From the sequence record MN850635.1: a stretch of 64,000 bases of DNA; one strand, written 5' to 3'. The notes beneath the pieces are model-generated. The model was not told the origin of the DNA. It made no database searches and saw only the letters and a list, made by a program, of their open reading frames with translations. Both the position numbers and the translations under genes were made by a program. Each line of letters starts with the position of its first letter. The stretch's first letter is position 1. Shown piece after piece: positions 1 through 63,140 of the stretch. This DNA comes from Escherichia phage bumzen.

Positions 1-3387
<3,387 letters not shown>

Positions 3388-3389
3388 TA

Positions 3390-4538
3390 ATGGCAGTAGG
3401 TGAAATTCAAATTAGTGCCTTGCCTCAAGCAGCCTTACCAATTGACCTTAGTGATATCTTCCATCTTAAACAGGGTATCGAGGATAAGAGATGTACTCTT
3501 GAGCAATTACTTGCTCCACACTCAAGCCTAAGAAATAACCCTCATGGTGTTACTAAGACACAAATTGGTTTAGATAACGTTATTAATGCTCTCCAGTTAG
3601 TCGCTGCAAATAACTTATCAGATATTGTTAATGTAGCTGAGGCAAGAGCAAATCTACAGATTATGTCTTCAGAAGAGGTTAATAGCCTTATTCAACAGCA
3701 TATTAATGACAAGAGCAACCCACACAATACAACTAAGGCGCAGGTTGGTTTAAGTAATGTCCAGAACTGGGTGACATCTAACCTTTATAATGAGGATGCA
3801 GATAAGTATGCTACAGCAAGAGCAGTAAATAACTTGTACAAGGCTGTTCAGGCTTCTTATCCAGTAGGTACTATCCATCTCTCTATGAATCCTGCAAACC
3901 CTTCTACATATTTAATTTGTGGAGGTACTTGGGAGTTAGTTTCAAAAGGAAGAGCACTTGTAGGTTATGATAGAGATTCTAGGCCAGTTGGTTCAACGTT
4001 TGGTTCACAGACTACTGCACTGACGGTTAATAACATCCCTGCACATACCCACTCAGTGTATGTCACTGGTGGTGGTCACACTCATGGTGCAACGGCCTCT
4101 GTCAGTGCTTTTGATTATGGCACTAAAGGGACTACAACGTTTGACTACGGAACCAAGACCGTATCTACTTACGACTATGGCAACAGAACAACAAGTGCCG
4201 CTGGCTTAACACAAACAACATTCATTAACCGTGGCTATGCTGATGGTGGCTGGAGAGGTTTATCGGTTGAGGGGGCAAGCTATGACCCAAGAGCTACGTT
4301 GACAACAGCTAACAACCACACTCACTCTGTAGCAATTGGTGCGCATAATCACACAGTGGGGATTGGTGCTCACAGCCATTCTGTTGCAATTGGTTCCCAC
4401 AACCACTCAGCAACAGTAACAGTAACCGGAGCAGGTGAGCATTCGCACTCTGGCACAACTGGCACAACTGGTTCTGGTCAAGCATTTAGCGTTGAGCAGC
4501 CATCCTTCGTATTGTATGTATGGCAGAGAACAGCTTAA
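3390..4538 (+). CDS. tail fiber protein (short paralog) with His-x-His repeat tip
   Basis: 382 aa; repeats HTHSV/GAHNHTVGIGAHSHSVAIGSHNHS and SFDYGTK; C-terminus (GSGQAFSVEQPSF..W.RTA) shared with next gene. Confidence 0.7.
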   Translation: MAVGEIQISALPQAALPIDLSDIFHLKQGIEDKRCTLEQLLAPHSSLRNNPHGVTKTQIGLDNVINALQLVAANNLSDIVNVAEARANLQIMSSEEVNSLIQQHINDKSNPHNTTKAQVGLSNVQNWVTSNLYNEDADKYATARAVNNLYKAVQASYPVGTIHLSMNPANPSTYLICGGTWELVSKGRALVGYDRDSRPVGSTFGSQTTALTVNNIPAHTHSVYVTGGGHTHGATASVSAFDYGTKGTTTFDYGTKTVSTYDYGNRTTSAAGLTQTTFINRGYADGGWRGLSVEGASYDPRATLTTANNHTHSVAIGAHNHTVGIGAHSHSVAIGSHNHSATVTVTGAGEHSHSGTTGTTGSGQAFSVEQPSFVLYVWQRTA

Positions 4539-4584
4539 TTTCTTTACAGGGGCTGTATAGCCCCTTTTAAGAGGAAAATTTATA

Positions 4585-6939
4585 ATGGCAGATTACAAGT
4601 TGAGTGAATTAAACTCAATTGATACAATTCGTTCAGACGACCTCCTTCATATCAGGGTTAAAAAGAGACCTGAAATGCTGGGTGATGAAGACCGTCGAAT
4701 GACCTATCAAGACTTCTTAGCGTCTTTTAAACTAGAAAGATTTGTCCAGATTGCTGGTAGCACTATGACGGGTGACTTAGGAATTGTCAAGTTACTTTAT
4801 GGTGGTAAGGCAGTATTTGACCCTACAGGTTCTTCTGAGATTACTATGGGGGATGTTTTAAAGGCTTTTAAAATCAATGCAAATGGTCTTAAACTAACTA
4901 TTGCAGATGCTTCAAGGTCTGCAACTGTTTATCATACTCTTAATAAGCCAAGTCCTAATGAACTTGGGATGAGAACTAATGAAGAGAATGATGCAAGATA
5001 CTCAAGATTGGCTGCAAATAACACCTTTAGAGGTACTCAAAATATTCTATCTGATAATGAAACTATTATTGTTAAGAATATTACACAAGGAATGCCGCTG
5101 TATATTCGCGGTCAAGATGCAGATGGTACTAACAGGTGGTATCTAGGTAATGATAACAAAGGTACAGACAATCTTGTTTTAAAAAATGTTAAATCTGGTG
5201 CATATGTAGCTATTTTGGGTAGCTTAATCACTGTGAACAAATCTATCCAGATTACTGGTCAAGTTCAACCTTCTGATTGGTCTAACTTAGATACTAGATA
5301 CTTTACTCAGACAGCAGCTAATCAGAGATTTGCACAGCTAGTTGGTAATAACACCTTCAGGGGTATTAACAATTTTGTAGGAGAGTTCAATATCACCAGA
5401 GATAACGCTGTGCTAGTCGTTAAGAATGCCACTGCTGCAACTGGACTGTACTTGCTGGGGCAGAAGGCTGATGGGACAAACAAGTTCTACTTAGGGACTG
5501 ATGACTCTGATTCTGTAGTTAATCTACATAACTACATCACAAGCACAACCATCTCTTTGTCAAATGTGATTACCACTACTAAGACTGTGAAAATCACTGG
5601 ACAAGTTCAACCTTCAGATTGGACTAACATTGACTCTAGATACATCTCAGCAGGAACTTTGAGTAATCTTGCTAAGTTAAGTGATGTAAACACTTTTAGG
5701 ATTGCACAGATTATTAATCAGAATGGTTCATTGTTACAGCTAAAGAATACTACACAAGACAAAGAGCTATACTTTGCTGGTCATAATGCTGATGGTGTTA
5801 GAAGGTGGTACATTGGGAATGGGGAACCATCCAACCCAGAAAGATTTATTATCCATAACGACAGAACTGCAACTACGATTTATATGCAAGATGATTTCTT
5901 GCTGAATAAAACTGTTAAAATTACTGGTCAAGTTCAACCATCTGATTGGTCTAACTTAGATGCTAGATACTTCACTCAGGCAGCAGCTAATCAGAGATTT
6001 ATGTATGCAGGTTCTACAGGAGAAGCTACAGAGCAGAATGCAGATGGTGTGGCATGGAACGCTAAAACAGGCTTATATAATGTAACCTCAACAAATGCTG
6101 ATTACACAGCACTTGTGTTTCAAATGTATCAGGGGGTGACCTCTTCTACTGCCTGTGCGCAATTAAAGTTCCAGTATAAAAACGGTGGAATGTGGTACAG
6201 AACATCTGTAGCTAGTAAAGGTTTTGAAGCTAAGTGGTCTAAGGTTTACACAGAGGCTCAGAAACCAACCCCTTCAGAGCTTGGTGCATACACTAAAGCA
6301 GAAACTGACCAGAAGATTGCACAGGCAGTAAGTGACTCTACAGACCTTAATAAAATCTACCCAGTAGGTATTGTAACGTGGTTTAACAGTAATGTTAACC
6401 CTAATACAGCACTGCCTGGTCTAACTTGGACGTACCTTAACAATGGTGTTGGTAGAACTATCAGAATTGCAGCAGCAAACGGTTCAGATGTTGCTACAAC
6501 AGGTGGTTCAGACTCTGTGACGTTAGCTGTTGGTAACTTACCATCACACACTCACAGTTTTTCTGCTACCACTTCATCTTTTGACTACGGAACAAAAAAC
6601 ACTAACACGACTGGTGCTCACGCTCACTCTGTAAGTGGCTCTACTTCATCTGCTGGTAACCACAACCATTCCATTTCGTGGATTGGTCAGAACTCTAAAC
6701 ACTACTCTGGTGGTGGTGGTGGTAGTATTGGTGTAGGACCGGGTTACACCGATGCTAACGGTGCTCACACCCACTCTGTAAGTGGTACTGCCGCTTCTGC
6801 TGGTAACCATGCTCACAGTGTAGGTATCGGTGCTCACACCCATACAGTTAGTGGTAACACTGGTGGTACAGGTTCTGGTTCAGCATTTAGTGTTACTAAC
6901 CAGTTCTACAAGTTAATGGCTTGGGTAAGAACTGCTTAA
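4585..6939 (+). CDS. tail fiber protein (long paralog) with internal tandem repeats and His-x-His tip
   Basis: 784 aa; three ~110 aa repeats each ending [15 protein letters not shown]; C-terminal GAH.HSV repeats and shared C-terminal motif. Confidence 0.75.
4987..5980 (+). repeat. three in-frame tandem ~330 bp repeats inside long tail fiber gene
   Basis: Near-identical DNA segments at ~5255, ~5593 and ~5923 (attactggtcaagttcaacc.tc.gattgg.ctaac). Confidence 0.7.
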
Positions 6940-7213: not shown

Positions 7214-7585
7214 ATGAAGTGGCTAGAGGAAGCTTTTAAAAATAATATTGGTGCAATTGTAGTTGGTATTTTTAGTGTTATTGGGATGTATACCACGATG
7301 CAAGTCTCAAGTGGTAAGCAAGAAGTATCTGTCACAACAAAGTTACAGCAGCTAGATAATTATTCCAAAAGTAACTATTCAGCTATTCGTGATTTACAGT
7401 CTGACATGAGACTGATTCAGCTAGGGATGGAGAACCAGAAAGTTCAGTTAGAGAATGTTAAGGGTGAAAACGCAAAACTTACCAAAACTCTTGATAAATT
7501 CTCTGACAGTGTGAACAATCTGGCTCAATCAGTATCAGCCTTGCAAGCTATTACTGAAAAGAACACAAAGAATACTGAAAAATAA
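7214..7585 (+). CDS. membrane-anchored coiled-coil protein
   Basis: 123 aa; N-terminal TM segment (IGAIVVGIFSVIGMY) then heptad-rich region. Confidence 0.35.
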   Translation: MKWLEEAFKNNIGAIVVGIFSVIGMYTTMQVSSGKQEVSVTTKLQQLDNYSKSNYSAIRDLQSDMRLIQLGMENQKVQLENVKGENAKLTKTLDKFSDSVNNLAQSVSALQAITEKNTKNTEK

Positions 7586-57919: not shown

Positions 57920-58465
57920 CTATAATTGTAGGTTGCATTCTTTACTTACCTCTTCAAGTTTAACCTCAGAATCCTTAAGTCGTTTCTTATGAACTCTGAA
58001 CCTTATTAGTGAGATGATAATACCAGCTAAAGGAACAGCATACAAGTACCAGATATCATGTATCTTTGTAGTAATCTGTGTAGTAATCTGTGTAATGGTC
58101 AAATCTTGAGCTATGCAGCTAATTGCTGATACTGCCAGTAACGTTGCTAAGAAGAACGCCAGTACCATAACAATACTTAGGCAACCTCTGGCATGGTGTT
58201 CATGCTTAATACACTTATTCTTTTCGTCAACAACCCTGTTGTAGTCATTTGCAAAGTCTCTGTAGAAAGCTTTCAGGTATTCTTGAGTGTAGCCTTCAAA
58301 GCAACCTGTACCATACCAATAATCACCACCAAAATGTGCTATGATACCAACCTCTCCATTTGGTTTCGTCACTCTTAAAGAAGTATGATGGCAAGTATCC
58401 TGAAAATCTATCTTGTATCTTTCTTCGTAAATCATTTTCCAACCCCTCTCAATCGTTTGTTCCAC
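57920..58465 (-). CDS. membrane protein
   Basis: 181 aa; two C-terminal hydrophobic segments. Confidence 0.45.
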   Translation of the reverse strand: MEQTIERGWKMIYEERYKIDFQDTCHHTSLRVTKPNGEVGIIAHFGGDYWYGTGCFEGYTQEYLKAFYRDFANDYNRVVDEKNKCIKHEHHARGCLSIVMVLAFFLATLLAVSAISCIAQDLTITQITTQITTKIHDIWYLYAVPLAGIIISLIRFRVHKKRLKDSEVKLEEVSKECNLQL

Positions 58466-59659: not shown

Positions 59660-59945
59660 CGTTAAACTCTCTGACGAAGAAATAGTTGACTTTGTTATTA
59701 CCTACCATAAGGTCAAAGCAGGTATTCTCAAAAGGTTTGTTGTAGGCATCATATGAAACATATGGGTCAGCTACTTGCTTAGTGCTTAACTTCTTACTTG
59801 ATGGGTTTAAGAGGCCACCATACAGTTTCTTGATAGCCTCTTCTACAACAGACCAGATGATTTCGTCAGTAATTTCTTCGTACAGGTCAAGTTCACGCTC
59901 TAGTGAGAAGTCACAAATAGGGAAAATAACCTGCACTTTACTCAT
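59652..59945 (-). CDS. hypothetical protein
   Basis: 97 aa ORF. Confidence 0.45.
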   Translation of the reverse strand: MSKVQVIFPICDFSLERELDLYEEITDEIIWSVVEEAIKKLYGGLLNPSSKKLSTKQVADPYVSYDAYNKPFENTCFDLMVGNNKVNYFFVREFNDE

Positions 59946-60343
59946 TAACGGATAACCTGTGTGACTTGAATTGCTTCAGTTACTGACAAGTCACCTACTT
60001 TCTCTTCTTTGATAAAAGTGAAGGTGAGTTCAACAGGCTCTTGCTCTTCTTGCTCAACTGGAACACCGTTAAGCTCATCAAAGATTGATTGAGTTGTCCA
60101 GTCTTCTCCACCATCTGGATAGTGGATTGCGTAAAGAGGGAACTCTAAATCAAACCAACCAAATACAGGACAACCGTCTTCATCATCTCGTACTCGATGA
60201 AGTGTGCTTCCAGACCCTGTAAACTGAAGGAATAAATCTCCGTTGCACTTGTATATTACTGCGTCGGCAAAACCAATGTCTTCTCGACCATCATGACCAA
60301 ATGTGTCCACCTTTACTTGGATATCTCTAACATCTTTATTCAT
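59945..60343 (-). CDS. hypothetical acidic protein
   Basis: 132 aa ORF. Confidence 0.45.
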   Translation of the reverse strand: MNKDVRDIQVKVDTFGHDGREDIGFADAVIYKCNGDLFLQFTGSGSTLHRVRDDEDGCPVFGWFDLEFPLYAIHYPDGGEDWTTQSIFDELNGVPVEQEEQEPVELTFTFIKEEKVGDLSVTEAIQVTQVIR

Positions 60344-60750: not shown

Positions 60751-60776
60751 AATAAAAAAGGCTCCCGAAGGAGCCT
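60751..60776 (-). terminator. hairpin with UUCG loop followed by U-tract (minus strand)
   Basis: Minus strand aggctcc-ttcg-ggagcct then tttttt, between endolysin and next gene. Confidence 0.6.
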
Positions 60777-60785
60777 ATGAAGATA

Positions 60786-61250
60786 TTACTTTGGATATAC
60801 ACTGTCAAGATAAATGTCAGCTTCCATTCTACGTCTGTTTTTCAGGCCGTTTGAAGTGACCTTCTTACCTTTCACTGTAACCTTGTTCCACCACTGCATA
60901 GCTTCTGCACAACCTACCTTATTACCAGCATTGTGGCGCTTGATAAATGTAGAATCCTGCATAGCTGTGATGCCGATGTTGTATGTTTCACTTACAAGTG
61001 CATCAAACTCGTTCTGAGAAGTTGGAACCTTGATGGCTTTGTTCACTGCTGCAACGAACTTTTCAACATCTGCAAGAAGATACTGTTCAGCTTGTTCAGC
61101 GGTAATCTTCATACCCATCTTAACAGGCTTCCCACCAATACGAATTGTCCCATACCCGATTGTAGGGATTCCGGCAGAGTCTTCGTAAGCCTCTAACTTC
61201 AGACCTTCAAAGAACTTAATAGCTTCTAAACCTTTTCTTGAGAGTTGCAT
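60786..61250 (-). CDS. endolysin, GH24 lysozyme family
   Basis: N-terminal EGLKLEAYEDSAGIPTIGYG matches the Glu-Asp-Thr catalytic motif of T4/lambda-type lysozymes. Confidence 0.8.
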   Translation of the reverse strand: MQLSRKGLEAIKFFEGLKLEAYEDSAGIPTIGYGTIRIGGKPVKMGMKITAEQAEQYLLADVEKFVAAVNKAIKVPTSQNEFDALVSETYNIGITAMQDSTFIKRHNAGNKVGCAEAMQWWNKVTVKGKKVTSNGLKNRRRMEADIYLDSVYPK

Positions 61251-62134
61251 TATGCCTCCCCTGCTGGATTAACTGTAACTGTTGCTGCATTAGATGTTAC
61301 AGAGCCACCTGCGCCAGTAACTACACAGGTGTAGCTTCCTGAATCAGCAGCGGTTGCTCCTTCTTTGGTGTAGGTTGCAGTAGTTGCATCGAGGATGTCT
61401 TCCTCATCTTTCTTCCACTGATAACCTGTTGCACCTGTTGCCACAACATTCAACGTTAAGGTCTCACCTTCATTGATTTCTTGATTGGTTGGCTGTTGAG
61501 TGATGACAGGAAGTGCATTCACAGTCACTGTTGCTGCATCTGAGGTAACACTTGTTCCACCCTCTCCAGATACAACACAAGTGTATGAACCAGCATCAGA
61601 AGGTGCTACTGACTGTTTTGTGTAAGTTGCAGAATTGGCACTAGGGATGTCCTCACCATCCTTCTTCCACTGATATCCAGTGGCGTTAGTTGCTAGAATG
61701 CTTAGAGTAAGTGTGCCACCCTCATTGACTGTTTGACCTGTCGGTTGCTGAGTAATTGCTGGTGGCTTAATAGCATCCTTCAACTTAGCATTCAACATTG
61801 AGAACGGCTTAACTCTTGCCAACCATTCACAGTAAATTGTGTCAACATCTTTACCATTGATGATTGCATACTGCAAATCCATGAAGAAATCAGCAGTTCT
61901 CATCTGTGCACCAACACTGTAAAGCAATTCATCACTAAATGGAACTTTGTAGTCTGGTTTGTAGTCAAACTTCTCAACTTCTGCAATATCAGCTTCAGGC
62001 CAATATGAACTATAGGTAAGTGGTAAAATAGCCTCTTGATATGTTCTAAAATCATACCTCTTACCAGCCTTTACATTTGCAATGAAACCCTTCACAAACT
62101 CTTTGAAGTCTGGGTAAGTCTTTGCTTTAATCAT
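61250..62134 (-). CDS. protein with N-terminal conserved domain and two tandem Ig-like domains
   Basis: Two repeats TGYQWKKD(G/E)EDI...ATYTK...D(A/S)GSYTCVV...ATVTVN; stop overlaps endolysin start (TAATG). Confidence 0.65.
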   Translation of the reverse strand: MIKAKTYPDFKEFVKGFIANVKAGKRYDFRTYQEAILPLTYSSYWPEADIAEVEKFDYKPDYKVPFSDELLYSVGAQMRTADFFMDLQYAIINGKDVDTIYCEWLARVKPFSMLNAKLKDAIKPPAITQQPTGQTVNEGGTLTLSILATNATGYQWKKDGEDIPSANSATYTKQSVAPSDAGSYTCVVSGEGGTSVTSDAATVTVNALPVITQQPTNQEINEGETLTLNVVATGATGYQWKKDEEDILDATTATYTKEGATAADSGSYTCVVTGAGGSVTSNAATVTVNPAGEA

Positions 62135-62502
62135 TTCTTTTTAGCCTCTAAATGTGCGTTTAGTCTAAAATAACCTTTGTGATGCGGAGATACATCACCA
62201 ACAACAATACCTTTAACCTTATAGCCTTTACCAATTACATACTGGATATCCATAAGGAATCTTCCAAGTCCAACAATATGGAACATTGGATATAATAGGT
62301 TCTCAGAATCTGGAATATTGATTTCAGGTTTGTAGGTACGCTGTTCGATTGTTGGTGTAATATCTTCTTCAGGCCATTTGCTGAGTCTCCATGTCAAAGG
62401 TGTTGGGATAACATCATTAAGGTTGTACCTTTCACCATTTTGCACGGAATTGATATAGGATTGTAGGAAGCAATAAAAGTCTTTTGCACTCTTAGCTTTC
62501 AT
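62131..62502 (-). CDS. paralog of the N-terminal domain of the Ig-like protein
   Basis: 123 aa alignable with residues 1-120 of 61250-62134; ATGA overlap. Confidence 0.5.
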   Translation of the reverse strand: MKAKSAKDFYCFLQSYINSVQNGERYNLNDVIPTPLTWRLSKWPEEDITPTIEQRTYKPEINIPDSENLLYPMFHIVGLGRFLMDIQYVIGKGYKVKGIVVGDVSPHHKGYFRLNAHLEAKKK

Positions 62503-62549
62503 TAAATATCCTTATAAATAGTTAAAGGGGCATCAGCCCCTATTCACAC

Positions 62550-63140
62550 TTAAGCTTTGGTCTTAAGTAGGTTCTTAAGTTTTTTAAGATTCATACTCTC
62601 ATCAAACTTAAAACCAAATCCATTGACATAATCAATGAACTCGGATTTCTTACTAAGTGACAATGCGTAACTCATATCAAAGTTCTTACTTGTTTCTGCG
62701 TCTGGACTAGAGTTCACATCAAATGAAATTTCTGTAGGCTCTTGCTTACTTTTTCTCATATTATCAACCAACAAACATGTATAGTTTGCTGGATAGAAGT
62801 TTACACTACCATCAACGTAGCTGTACTTATTATTATGGATAAGGTTGGAAAATACCTTAAGGAATGTTTCTGAGTCGTGGCAAACAAGTTTGAATTGGCT
62901 GCTCTCTCCAAGCGCAACTAATGAGTACGGACTTTCACTATCAAAGTCATAATTTAGATTCGATGCCGTCACTGTTACACGCATCAAGTTATTAGCAATA
63001 GTCTTCTGTTTAAAAGAATTTTGAACATAGTGAAGACCTCTATCACACTGATTGACTAGCTCTTTAAGCAGGTCATTTGCATATGGTGAATTAATTGATA
63101 CAGAGCCATCACTATTGTAATTAAAACTTACTGTTAACAT
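62550..63140 (-). CDS. hypothetical protein
   Basis: 196 aa ORF. Confidence 0.5.
   Translation of the reverse strand: MLTVSFNYNSDGSVSINSPYANDLLKELVNQCDRGLHYVQNSFKQKTIANNLMRVTVTASNLNYDFDSESPYSLVALGESSQFKLVCHDSETFLKVFSNLIHNNKYSYVDGSVNFYPANYTCLLVDNMRKSKQEPTEISFDVNSSPDAETSKNFDMSYALSLSKKSEFIDYVNGFGFKFDESMNLKKLKNLLKTKA

Follow-up and report, generated by a model that had tools for sequence, protein, structure and literature searches.

We analyzed a locus of three minus-strand genes in Escherichia phage bumzen (sequence record MN850635.1), at positions 60,786 to 62,502 of a 64,000-nucleotide (nt) stretch of its DNA, hereafter called the window. In the order of transcription, the genes encode a 123-amino-acid (aa) protein, a 294-aa protein carrying immunoglobulin (Ig)-like domains, and a 154-aa lysozyme. 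Open reading frames (ORFs) were taken from a six-frame listing, and the junctions between them were read on the minus-strand sequence. The ORFs lie exactly where a preliminary description, made from the sequence alone, had placed them, and they overlap as it had reported: the ATGA at 62134-62131 combines the start codon of the 294-aa ORF with the stop codon of the 123-aa ORF, and the TAATG at 61252-61248 does the same for the lysozyme start and the 294-aa stop. Each of the three starts is preceded by a plausible Shine-Dalgarno sequence, such as the GGGGAGG ahead of the lysozyme ATG.

A 2.9-kb region here has 94 to 98% DNA identity to more than 200 Felixounavirus genomes from phages of Escherichia, Salmonella, and Shigella, of which those of phages humlepung and Barry are closest (98% identical). 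Based on this similarity, we classify the window as a Felixounavirus genome. The 123-aa, 294-aa, and 154-aa proteins correspond to gp37, gp36, and gp35 of phage Felix O1, and records of the humlepung and Barry type label the three genes "hypothetical protein," "(putative) tail protein," and "lysin." The coordinates of the genes, domains, and transcription signals are collected in Table 1, along with the spacing of one gene junction in related phages.

Table 1. Features of the three-gene locus in the window, the matching block of a metagenomic relative, and the junction between the 294-aa (Hex-Dec) and lysozyme genes across phages. CapBD, capsid-binding domain.
Feature	Genome	Position	Strand	Remarks
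Paralog, predicted CapBD only, 123 aa, 14.3 kDa	window	62131..62502	-	homolog of Felix O1 gp37 / Sf14 FDI99_gp021; PHROG 4463
Hex-Dec (by homology), 294 aa, 31.6 kDa	window	61250..62134	-	homolog of Felix O1 gp36 / Sf14 gp20 / Bas63 Hex-Dec; PHROG 3995, E=1e-171
Predicted GH24 (T4-lysozyme-type) endolysin, 154 aa	window	60786..61250	-	homolog of Felix O1 gp35; PF00959
Upstream gene, 196 aa	window	62550..63140	-	Felix O1 gp38 homolog; PHROG 4034, function unassigned
CapBD of Hex-Dec, residues 1-120	window	61775..62134	-	alignments to solved chains; Arg79 and Arg107 kept
Ig-like domain 1, ~residues 124-206	window	61517..61765	-	Pfam Ig_3 over residues 124-189; internal alignment
Ig-like domain 2, ~residues 207-289	window	61268..61516	-	Pfam Ig_2 and I-set over residues 209-288; internal alignment
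Intrinsic terminator (AGGCTCCTTCGGGAGCCT, then T-run)	window	60759..60776	-	past lysozyme; sequence equals Felix O1 terminator t35
GC hairpin (GGGGCTGATGCCCC, then TTTAACTATTTAT) with weak T-tract	window	62514..62540	-	sequence equals Felix O1 predicted terminator t38
Four-gene block	L011 (ERZ28599557)	3368-5726		195 aa, 122-aa paralog, 298-aa Hex-Dec, 154-aa lysozyme
Hex-Dec/lysozyme junction	window and BPS15Q2			1-nt overlap
Hex-Dec/lysozyme junction	metagenomic relative L011			4-nt overlap
Hex-Dec/lysozyme junction	Sf14			8-nt gap
Hex-Dec/lysozyme junction	Moogle			1-nt gap
Hex-Dec/lysozyme junction	mistaenkt			2-nt gap
Hex-Dec/lysozyme junction	Erwinia phage phiEa104			49-nt gap

To identify the 294-aa protein, we compared it with solved structures. 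Searches of the PDB with phmmer returned full-length alignments to chain S of 9NCF, the "Immunoglobulin-like domain protein" of phage Bas63 (E=5.8e-248), and to chain S of 9C2D and 9C3A, which is gp20 of phage Sf14 (E=7.4e-165). In the cryo-electron microscopy (cryo-EM) structure of the T=9 Sf14 capsid, gp20 is a monomer at the center of the pentamer-proximal hexamers, while the hexamers at the facet centers are unoccupied by it; its CapBD comprises the N-terminal 118 residues, two of which, Arg79 and Arg107, are salt-bridged to Asp221 in three major capsid protein (MCP) subunits (PMC11821841). The homolog from Bas63 (Escherichia phage JohannRWettstein) was named Hex-Dec; its CapBD is pseudo-two-fold symmetric, its gene lies more than 10 kb away from the structural module, and most Felixounavirus genomes wrongly label the protein a tail protein (PMC12609058). 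In both phages, Hex-Dec sits on the centers of the pentamer-proximal hexamers (PMC12609058, PMC11821841). Furthermore, mass spectrometry (MS) of purified Felix O1 virions detected gp36 at 31,610 Da with 44% coverage (Felix O1 paper), and the computed mass of the window protein is the same, 31.6 kDa.

Every defining feature of Hex-Dec that can be checked in a sequence was found in the 294-aa protein, which we thus identify by homology as Hex-Dec, a Hoc-like decoration protein of capsid hexamers. Capsid binding by the window protein is carried over from homologs that are 96 to 98% identical. For the location on the capsid and the anchor residues, as for virion proteomes and late timing, we likewise draw on the literature on close homologs, which applies to bumzen by analogy. 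Counter-evidence to the core identification is essentially absent. The identity of Hex-Dec is itself already known, and the CapBD structure was solved in 2025, yet the domain has no Pfam model. By analogy with its homologs, Hex-Dec would be made late and would plug as a monomer into the acidic center of each of the 60 pentamer-proximal hexamers of a T=9 head, where Arg79 and Arg107 would pair with Asp221 of the MCP. The two Ig-like domains would project outward like those of T4 Hoc, probably providing weak surface adhesion or promoting particle aggregation.

The domain composition of the 294-aa protein agrees with this assignment. Pfam models Ig_3 (E=3.5e-23), Ig_2 (E=4e-18), and I-set (E=3.4e-16) match its C-terminal part, which bears out the two tandem Ig-like domains of the preliminary description, and no Pfam model matches the first 120 residues. 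Both anchor arginines are present, here and in the aligned Hex-Dec sequences from Felix-like phages, and the CapBD has a dN/dS of 0.03 to 0.05. The two Ig-like domains share ~69% of their amino acids and 67% of their nucleotides, and among relatives their number ranges from one to four. We considered a recent tandem repeat in the DNA as a source of this copy-number variation; however, Tandem Repeats Finder returned nothing relevant, and the units are only 67% identical in nucleotide sequence. Nor did we find sequence support for an origin of the two pseudo-symmetric CapBD lobes by internal duplication, as a profile-profile comparison of the halves gave an E value of ~0.2.

We searched 1.84 billion representative proteins exhaustively by profile for wider relatives of the CapBD and obtained 13 CapBD-containing representatives and no link to a larger family. 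One of them (P0103, 153 aa) consists of a distant homolog of the CapBD and, where Hex-Dec has Ig-like domains, a Lys/Ser-rich tail that looks disordered. Judging from this sequence, the CapBD anchor seems to have been reused with other appendages.

The third gene encodes what is, from its sequence, an ordinary soluble GH24 endolysin. It matches PF00959 (Phage_lysozyme) at E=6.7e-41, with 140 bits against a gathering cutoff of 22.3, and PHROG 7 (endolysin) at E=1e-57. The catalytic triad E15-x8-D24-x5-T30 can be read in the sequence with the spacing of T4 lysozyme, and the N terminus is free of any hydrophobic stretch or signal-anchor. Its dN/dS is 0.01 to 0.10. The GH24 assignment made at the outset therefore stands. 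Complete single-domain GH24 enzymes of Gram-negative phages normally need no binding module.

Having assigned both genes, we asked whether they act together in lysis. The preliminary description had proposed that the Ig-like protein could be a cell-wall-binding or virion-decoration partner of the lysozyme and had read the gene overlaps as translational coupling. In its strongest form, this explanation has the Ig-like protein, and perhaps its paralog too, bind the cell wall on behalf of the endolysin or target the enzyme, with all three genes coupled for lysis. The genes are indeed adjacent, their stops and starts overlap, and the neighborhood of Hex-Dec and lysozyme is kept across the Ounavirinae, including Erwinia phage phiEa104. 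However, overlaps are the norm in a genome of this type. In the first 50 kb of humlepung (98% identical), 29 of 62 adjacent same-strand gene pairs overlap (47%), and 22 of these 29 overlaps are exactly 1 or 4 nt long. Stop/start overlap is thus the default gene spacing and does not exceed chance for this kind of genome. Moreover, the Hex-Dec/lysozyme junction is not conserved (Table 1). The overlap between the paralog and Hex-Dec is retained in every lineage examined.

Published timing and location also argue against a lysis partnership. By reverse transcription-PCR (RT-PCR), Felix O1 ORFs 36 and 37 peak at 60 min, together with the morphogenesis genes, whereas the peak of ORFs 35 and 38 comes at 25 min (Felix O1 paper), so that the lysozyme gene differs in peak time from the other two. 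Two cryo-EM structures show the N-terminal domain of Hex-Dec homologs bound to hexamers of the capsid, and in Felix O1 the homologous protein is abundant in virions. Neither junction statistics, junction variation, the place of the holin, nor published timing revealed a link between Hex-Dec and lysis, and we regard the lysis partnership as almost certainly wrong. Of the two roles first proposed for the Ig-like protein, decoration is upheld by the solved homologs and by the detection of Felix O1 gp36 in virions, while partnership with the lysozyme falls away, as does the notion that coupling denotes a special link. The adjacency of Hex-Dec and lysozyme would instead reflect inherited synteny and compact packing rather than joint function. 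Lysis biology is little affected by our results, since the suggested endolysin partnership does not hold.

We looked for other components of the lysis system. Among the ORFs flanking the lysozyme, none matched a lysis family in Pfam or PHROG, and there is no holin-endolysin cassette at this site, as first noticed from the sequence; the absence of a holin next to the lysin was also remarked on by the authors of the Felix O1 study. A homolog of the holin annotated in humlepung is encoded at 7214-7585 on the plus strand of the window, ~53 kb from the lysozyme. This 123-aa protein belongs to PHROG 4038, for which no function is given. It has one N-terminal hydrophobic segment followed by an apparent long helical or coiled-coil region, and, going by the gene order of humlepung, its gene lies just past the tail-fiber genes, beside thymidylate synthase. 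In Sf14, gp55 ("Holin or lysozyme"), which may or may not be the counterpart of the 7214-7585 gene, was found in virions (Sf14 paper). The lysozyme would degrade peptidoglycan after such a distant holin opens the inner membrane, and overall the lysis system of Felix O1-like phages looks poorly defined.

Two nearby genes deserve mention. The ORF at 59945-60343 on the minus strand, two genes downstream of the lysozyme, was considered as a second lysis enzyme and rejected, having no Pfam match and belonging to PHROG 4348 (function unknown); the label "D-alanyl-D-alanine carboxypeptidase" on its homologs in several GenBank records is an apparent case of annotation drift. The ORF at 57920-58465 on the minus strand encodes a 181-aa protein with two hydrophobic segments, called "membrane protein" in relatives and assigned to PHROG 4343 (function unknown). 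It lies ~2.3 kb downstream of the lysozyme, past a second terminator at 58708-58685.

A leftward transcription unit located outside the structural module would finish with these three genes and stop at the terminator past the lysozyme. Upstream, the GC hairpin at 62514-62540 occupies the space that divides the paralog from the 196-aa gene, and genomes with a decayed paralog still conserve it. The hairpin may set ORF 38, with its 25-min peak, apart from the late-peaking ORFs 37 and 36. As a structure, the hairpin is unremarkable (fold-energy z=-1.4), although it is listed as t38 in Felix O1. A promoter-like motif shared upstream of the paralog, CTATTTATAAGG, was rejected: its 15 matches compare with ~8 expected, nearly all carry two mismatches, and they fall off gene starts. 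A scan for sigma-70 promoters returned fewer sites than in shuffled controls. The 196-aa protein has 29% identity (E=4e-21) to P104_00390 of phiEa104, which is encoded directly upstream of the Hex-Dec gene of that phage. The order of 196-aa gene, Hex-Dec, and lysozyme is retained across the subfamily Ounavirinae, Erwinia phage phiEa104 included, as shared ancestry predicts.

We then turned to the 123-aa protein. BLASTP aligned its residues 1-99 with residues 2-100 of Hex-Dec at 38% identity (E=9e-17), and the PHROG families of the two proteins cross-match reciprocally. It has no significant Pfam match and no Ig-like domains. On this evidence, it is a true paralog of the Hex-Dec N terminus, a predicted CapBD without Ig-like domains, and the paralogy suspected at the outset is backed by alignment statistics. 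The fold of the shared domain had at first been called unrecognized. An AlphaFold2 model of the paralog, built from 28 sequences (predicted local distance difference test [pLDDT] of 74; predicted template modeling [pTM] score of 0.74), matched only the solved CapBDs in Foldseek searches (9C2D_S and 9NCF_S, probability of 1.0, TM scores of 0.66 to 0.67). The structure prediction that had been suggested as a check thus points to a known fold, namely, the CapBD solved in 9NCF_S and 9C2D_S. Judged by sequence similarity and by the modeled fold, the paralog belongs to the Hex-Dec CapBD fold family. Motifs that are invariant in both paralogs and CapBDs (DF..F, G.RY, WPE.DI, LLY, F.MD.QY, and LNA.L) run through the two groups.

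The paralog and Hex-Dec occur together in ~233 of 252 records of Felix-like phages (Felixounavirus, Mooglevirus, and Suspvirus). In Erwinia (Kolesnikvirus) and Hafnia phages, Hex-Dec stands beside the lysozyme and the paralog is absent. The paralog is dispensable in a natural lineage, and phage REP6 is a natural null for it. Among the 13 CapBD representatives was a 122-aa paralog with 45% identity, whose source is an 87-kb metagenomic phage contig (L011). The block in L011, a distant Ounavirinae-like phage with 45 to 57% aa identity, has junctions that overlap by 1 and 4 nt. Neighbor-joining placed the paralogs, the 45%-identical metagenomic lineage included, in a clade of their own and the CapBDs of Felix-like phages in another, each with 100% bootstrap support, which points to a single old tandem duplication of the CapBD.

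It is possible that the paralog is a functionless duplicate in decay. However, its dN/dS is 0.08 to 0.18 at a dS of 0.7 to 1.5 (0.06 to 0.14 for the upstream 196-aa gene), its ORF is intact in the ~233 genomes as well as in the 45%-identical lineage, and its length varies only from 122 to 124 aa. We consider decay very improbable: the paralog is under purifying selection and is a constrained protein, even though it evolves three to four times faster than the CapBD. Taken as a whole, we think it highly probable that the locus holds Hex-Dec beside an ordinary lysozyme, with no lysis partnership between them and with a CapBD-only paralog upstream.

What the paralog does is a separate question. 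Our best guess, which we offer tentatively, is that it interacts late and transiently with either capsomers or Hex-Dec, because it shares the CapBD fold, is expressed late together with Hex-Dec, is maintained by selection, and has a gene that constantly overlaps the start of Hex-Dec. The paralog would contact MCP capsomers or Hex-Dec transiently during head assembly or maturation, perhaps as a placeholder or competitor that shapes the Hex-Dec binding sites. A stable decoration is not what we envisage; the anchor is altered, the protein is undetected in virions, and a natural lineage dispenses with it. The features of a decoration protein are indeed missing from the paralog, which has no display domains, has lost the Arg79 anchor, and, according to the literature, is not found in virions. 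A more specific version also seems doubtful to us, namely, that the paralog is a second capsid-binding factor on capsomers free of Hex-Dec (facet-center hexamers, pentons, or procapsid hexamers) or a competitor that sets the pattern of 60 occupied hexamers out of 80.

Several observations weigh against a transient capsid role. The capsid-anchoring arginines that are conserved in CapBDs were not found in the paralogs: the position of Arg79 is an invariant Gly in all of them, and in place of Arg107 the window paralog has His, whereas most paralogs have Gln and a few have Arg. The 17 virion proteins identified for Felix O1 do not include gp37, though proteins of 9.7 to 13 kDa were detected (Felix O1 paper). 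The text on the VpaE1 proteome names gp54, gp58, and gp68 as the proteins found in VpaE1 and missing from the Felix O1 virion, and the counterpart of the paralog is not named. Papers on UAB_Phi87 and wV8 offered no virion proteomics of use for these genes. Table 1 of the Sf14 study lists gp20 among the structural proteins and does not list gp21 (PMC11821841). Cryo-EM revealed no extra density on the facet-center hexamers of Bas63 or Sf14 (PMC12609058, PMC11821841), both of which encode the paralog. The net charge of the paralog offered no clue to binding, its isoelectric point varying from 5.6 to 9.1 between lineages.

The same observations bear on two other explanations. The paralog could be a low-copy second decoration of the mature virion, on the 20 facet-center hexamers or on 11 pentons. 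Icosahedral averaging would smear out a lone asymmetric monomer, proteomics could miss 11 to 20 copies, and the changed anchor residues would fit a differently shaped site; the shared fold, the late transcription with Hex-Dec in Felix O1, and purifying selection are also in keeping with such a role. Yet no density on other hexamers was reported for either paralog-encoding phage, and the protein is missing from the Felix O1 proteome, from the VpaE1-specific proteins that were named, and from the Sf14 structural list, so that we regard a second decoration as quite unlikely. Alternatively, the function could be unrelated to the capsid, for example, as a decoy for a host defense that senses CapBD or in some other intracellular role. 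The loss of Arg79 in every paralog, the faster evolution, the failure to detect the protein in virions, and its natural dispensability would all suit this explanation. Late cotranscription and the conserved overlap with Hex-Dec speak against it, as do the retained WPE-DI, LLY, and LNA motifs common to CapBD. In addition, the paralog matched no Pfam family, and its PHROG matches were to its own family of unknown function and to the Hex-Dec family; the PADLOC defense library was not searched. On balance, we find a capsid-unrelated function rather unlikely.

These assignments have value for annotation. In most Felix O1-like genomes, the "tail protein" gene encodes, by homology, Hex-Dec, which decorates the capsid, and the upstream "hypothetical protein" appears to be a stand-alone copy of the capsid anchor. 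The paralog is not discussed in the literature searched: "paralog" does not appear in the Bas63 paper, nor "gp21" in the main text of the Sf14 paper, and a search for later work brought up nothing beyond the papers on the two structures and one on T4 Hoc. In databases, the relationship between paralog and CapBD is visible only indirectly, through "Tail protein" labels in UniRef and the PHROG cross-matches. For phage structural biology, the long retention of a late-expressed anchor domain without Ig-like domains poses a puzzle if that domain is not in the virion. When such therapeutic-candidate phages are engineered for phage display, the paralog might also serve as a minimal tag that binds the capsid or as a competitor.

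Compared with known systems, each gene of the locus has close counterparts. The 123-aa protein is 99 to 100% identical to many deposited phage proteins and belongs to the same family as Felix O1 gp37 and Sf14 FDI99_gp021 (PHROG 4463, "hypothetical protein"). Like Felix O1 gp35 and the T4 lysozyme family (GH24, PF00959), the window lysozyme is a predicted single-domain muramidase with the E-x8-D-x5-T arrangement and no adjacent holin, and nothing notable sets it apart from them. Over CapBD residues 1-120, the window Hex-Dec is 96.7% identical to Bas63 Hex-Dec (9NCF_S) and ~87% identical to Sf14 gp20 (9C2D/9C3A_S), and it shares with both the Arg79/Arg107 pair, the type of Ig-like repeat, and the position of its gene beside the lysozyme. 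The sole difference is in the number of Ig-like domains, two in the window versus four in Bas63 and three in Sf14, a kind of variation that has been described (PMC12609058). Hex-Dec also resembles T4 Hoc, in being a monomer at hexamer centers with a small capsid-binding domain and an outward string of Ig-like domains, and PHROG "Hoc-like" families match the Ig region of the 294-aa protein. However, the capsid-binding domain is C-terminal in Hoc and N-terminal in Hex-Dec, and no C-terminal Hoc-type domain was found in the 294-aa protein. The authors of the Bas63 study described the CapBD as larger than the Hoc domain, topologically distinct, and pseudo-two-fold, with minimal sequence similarity to it (PMC12609058). 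Hex-Dec thus acts in the manner of T4 Hoc, yet it falls outside the Hoc family because the order of domains is reversed and the capsid-binding fold is distinct.

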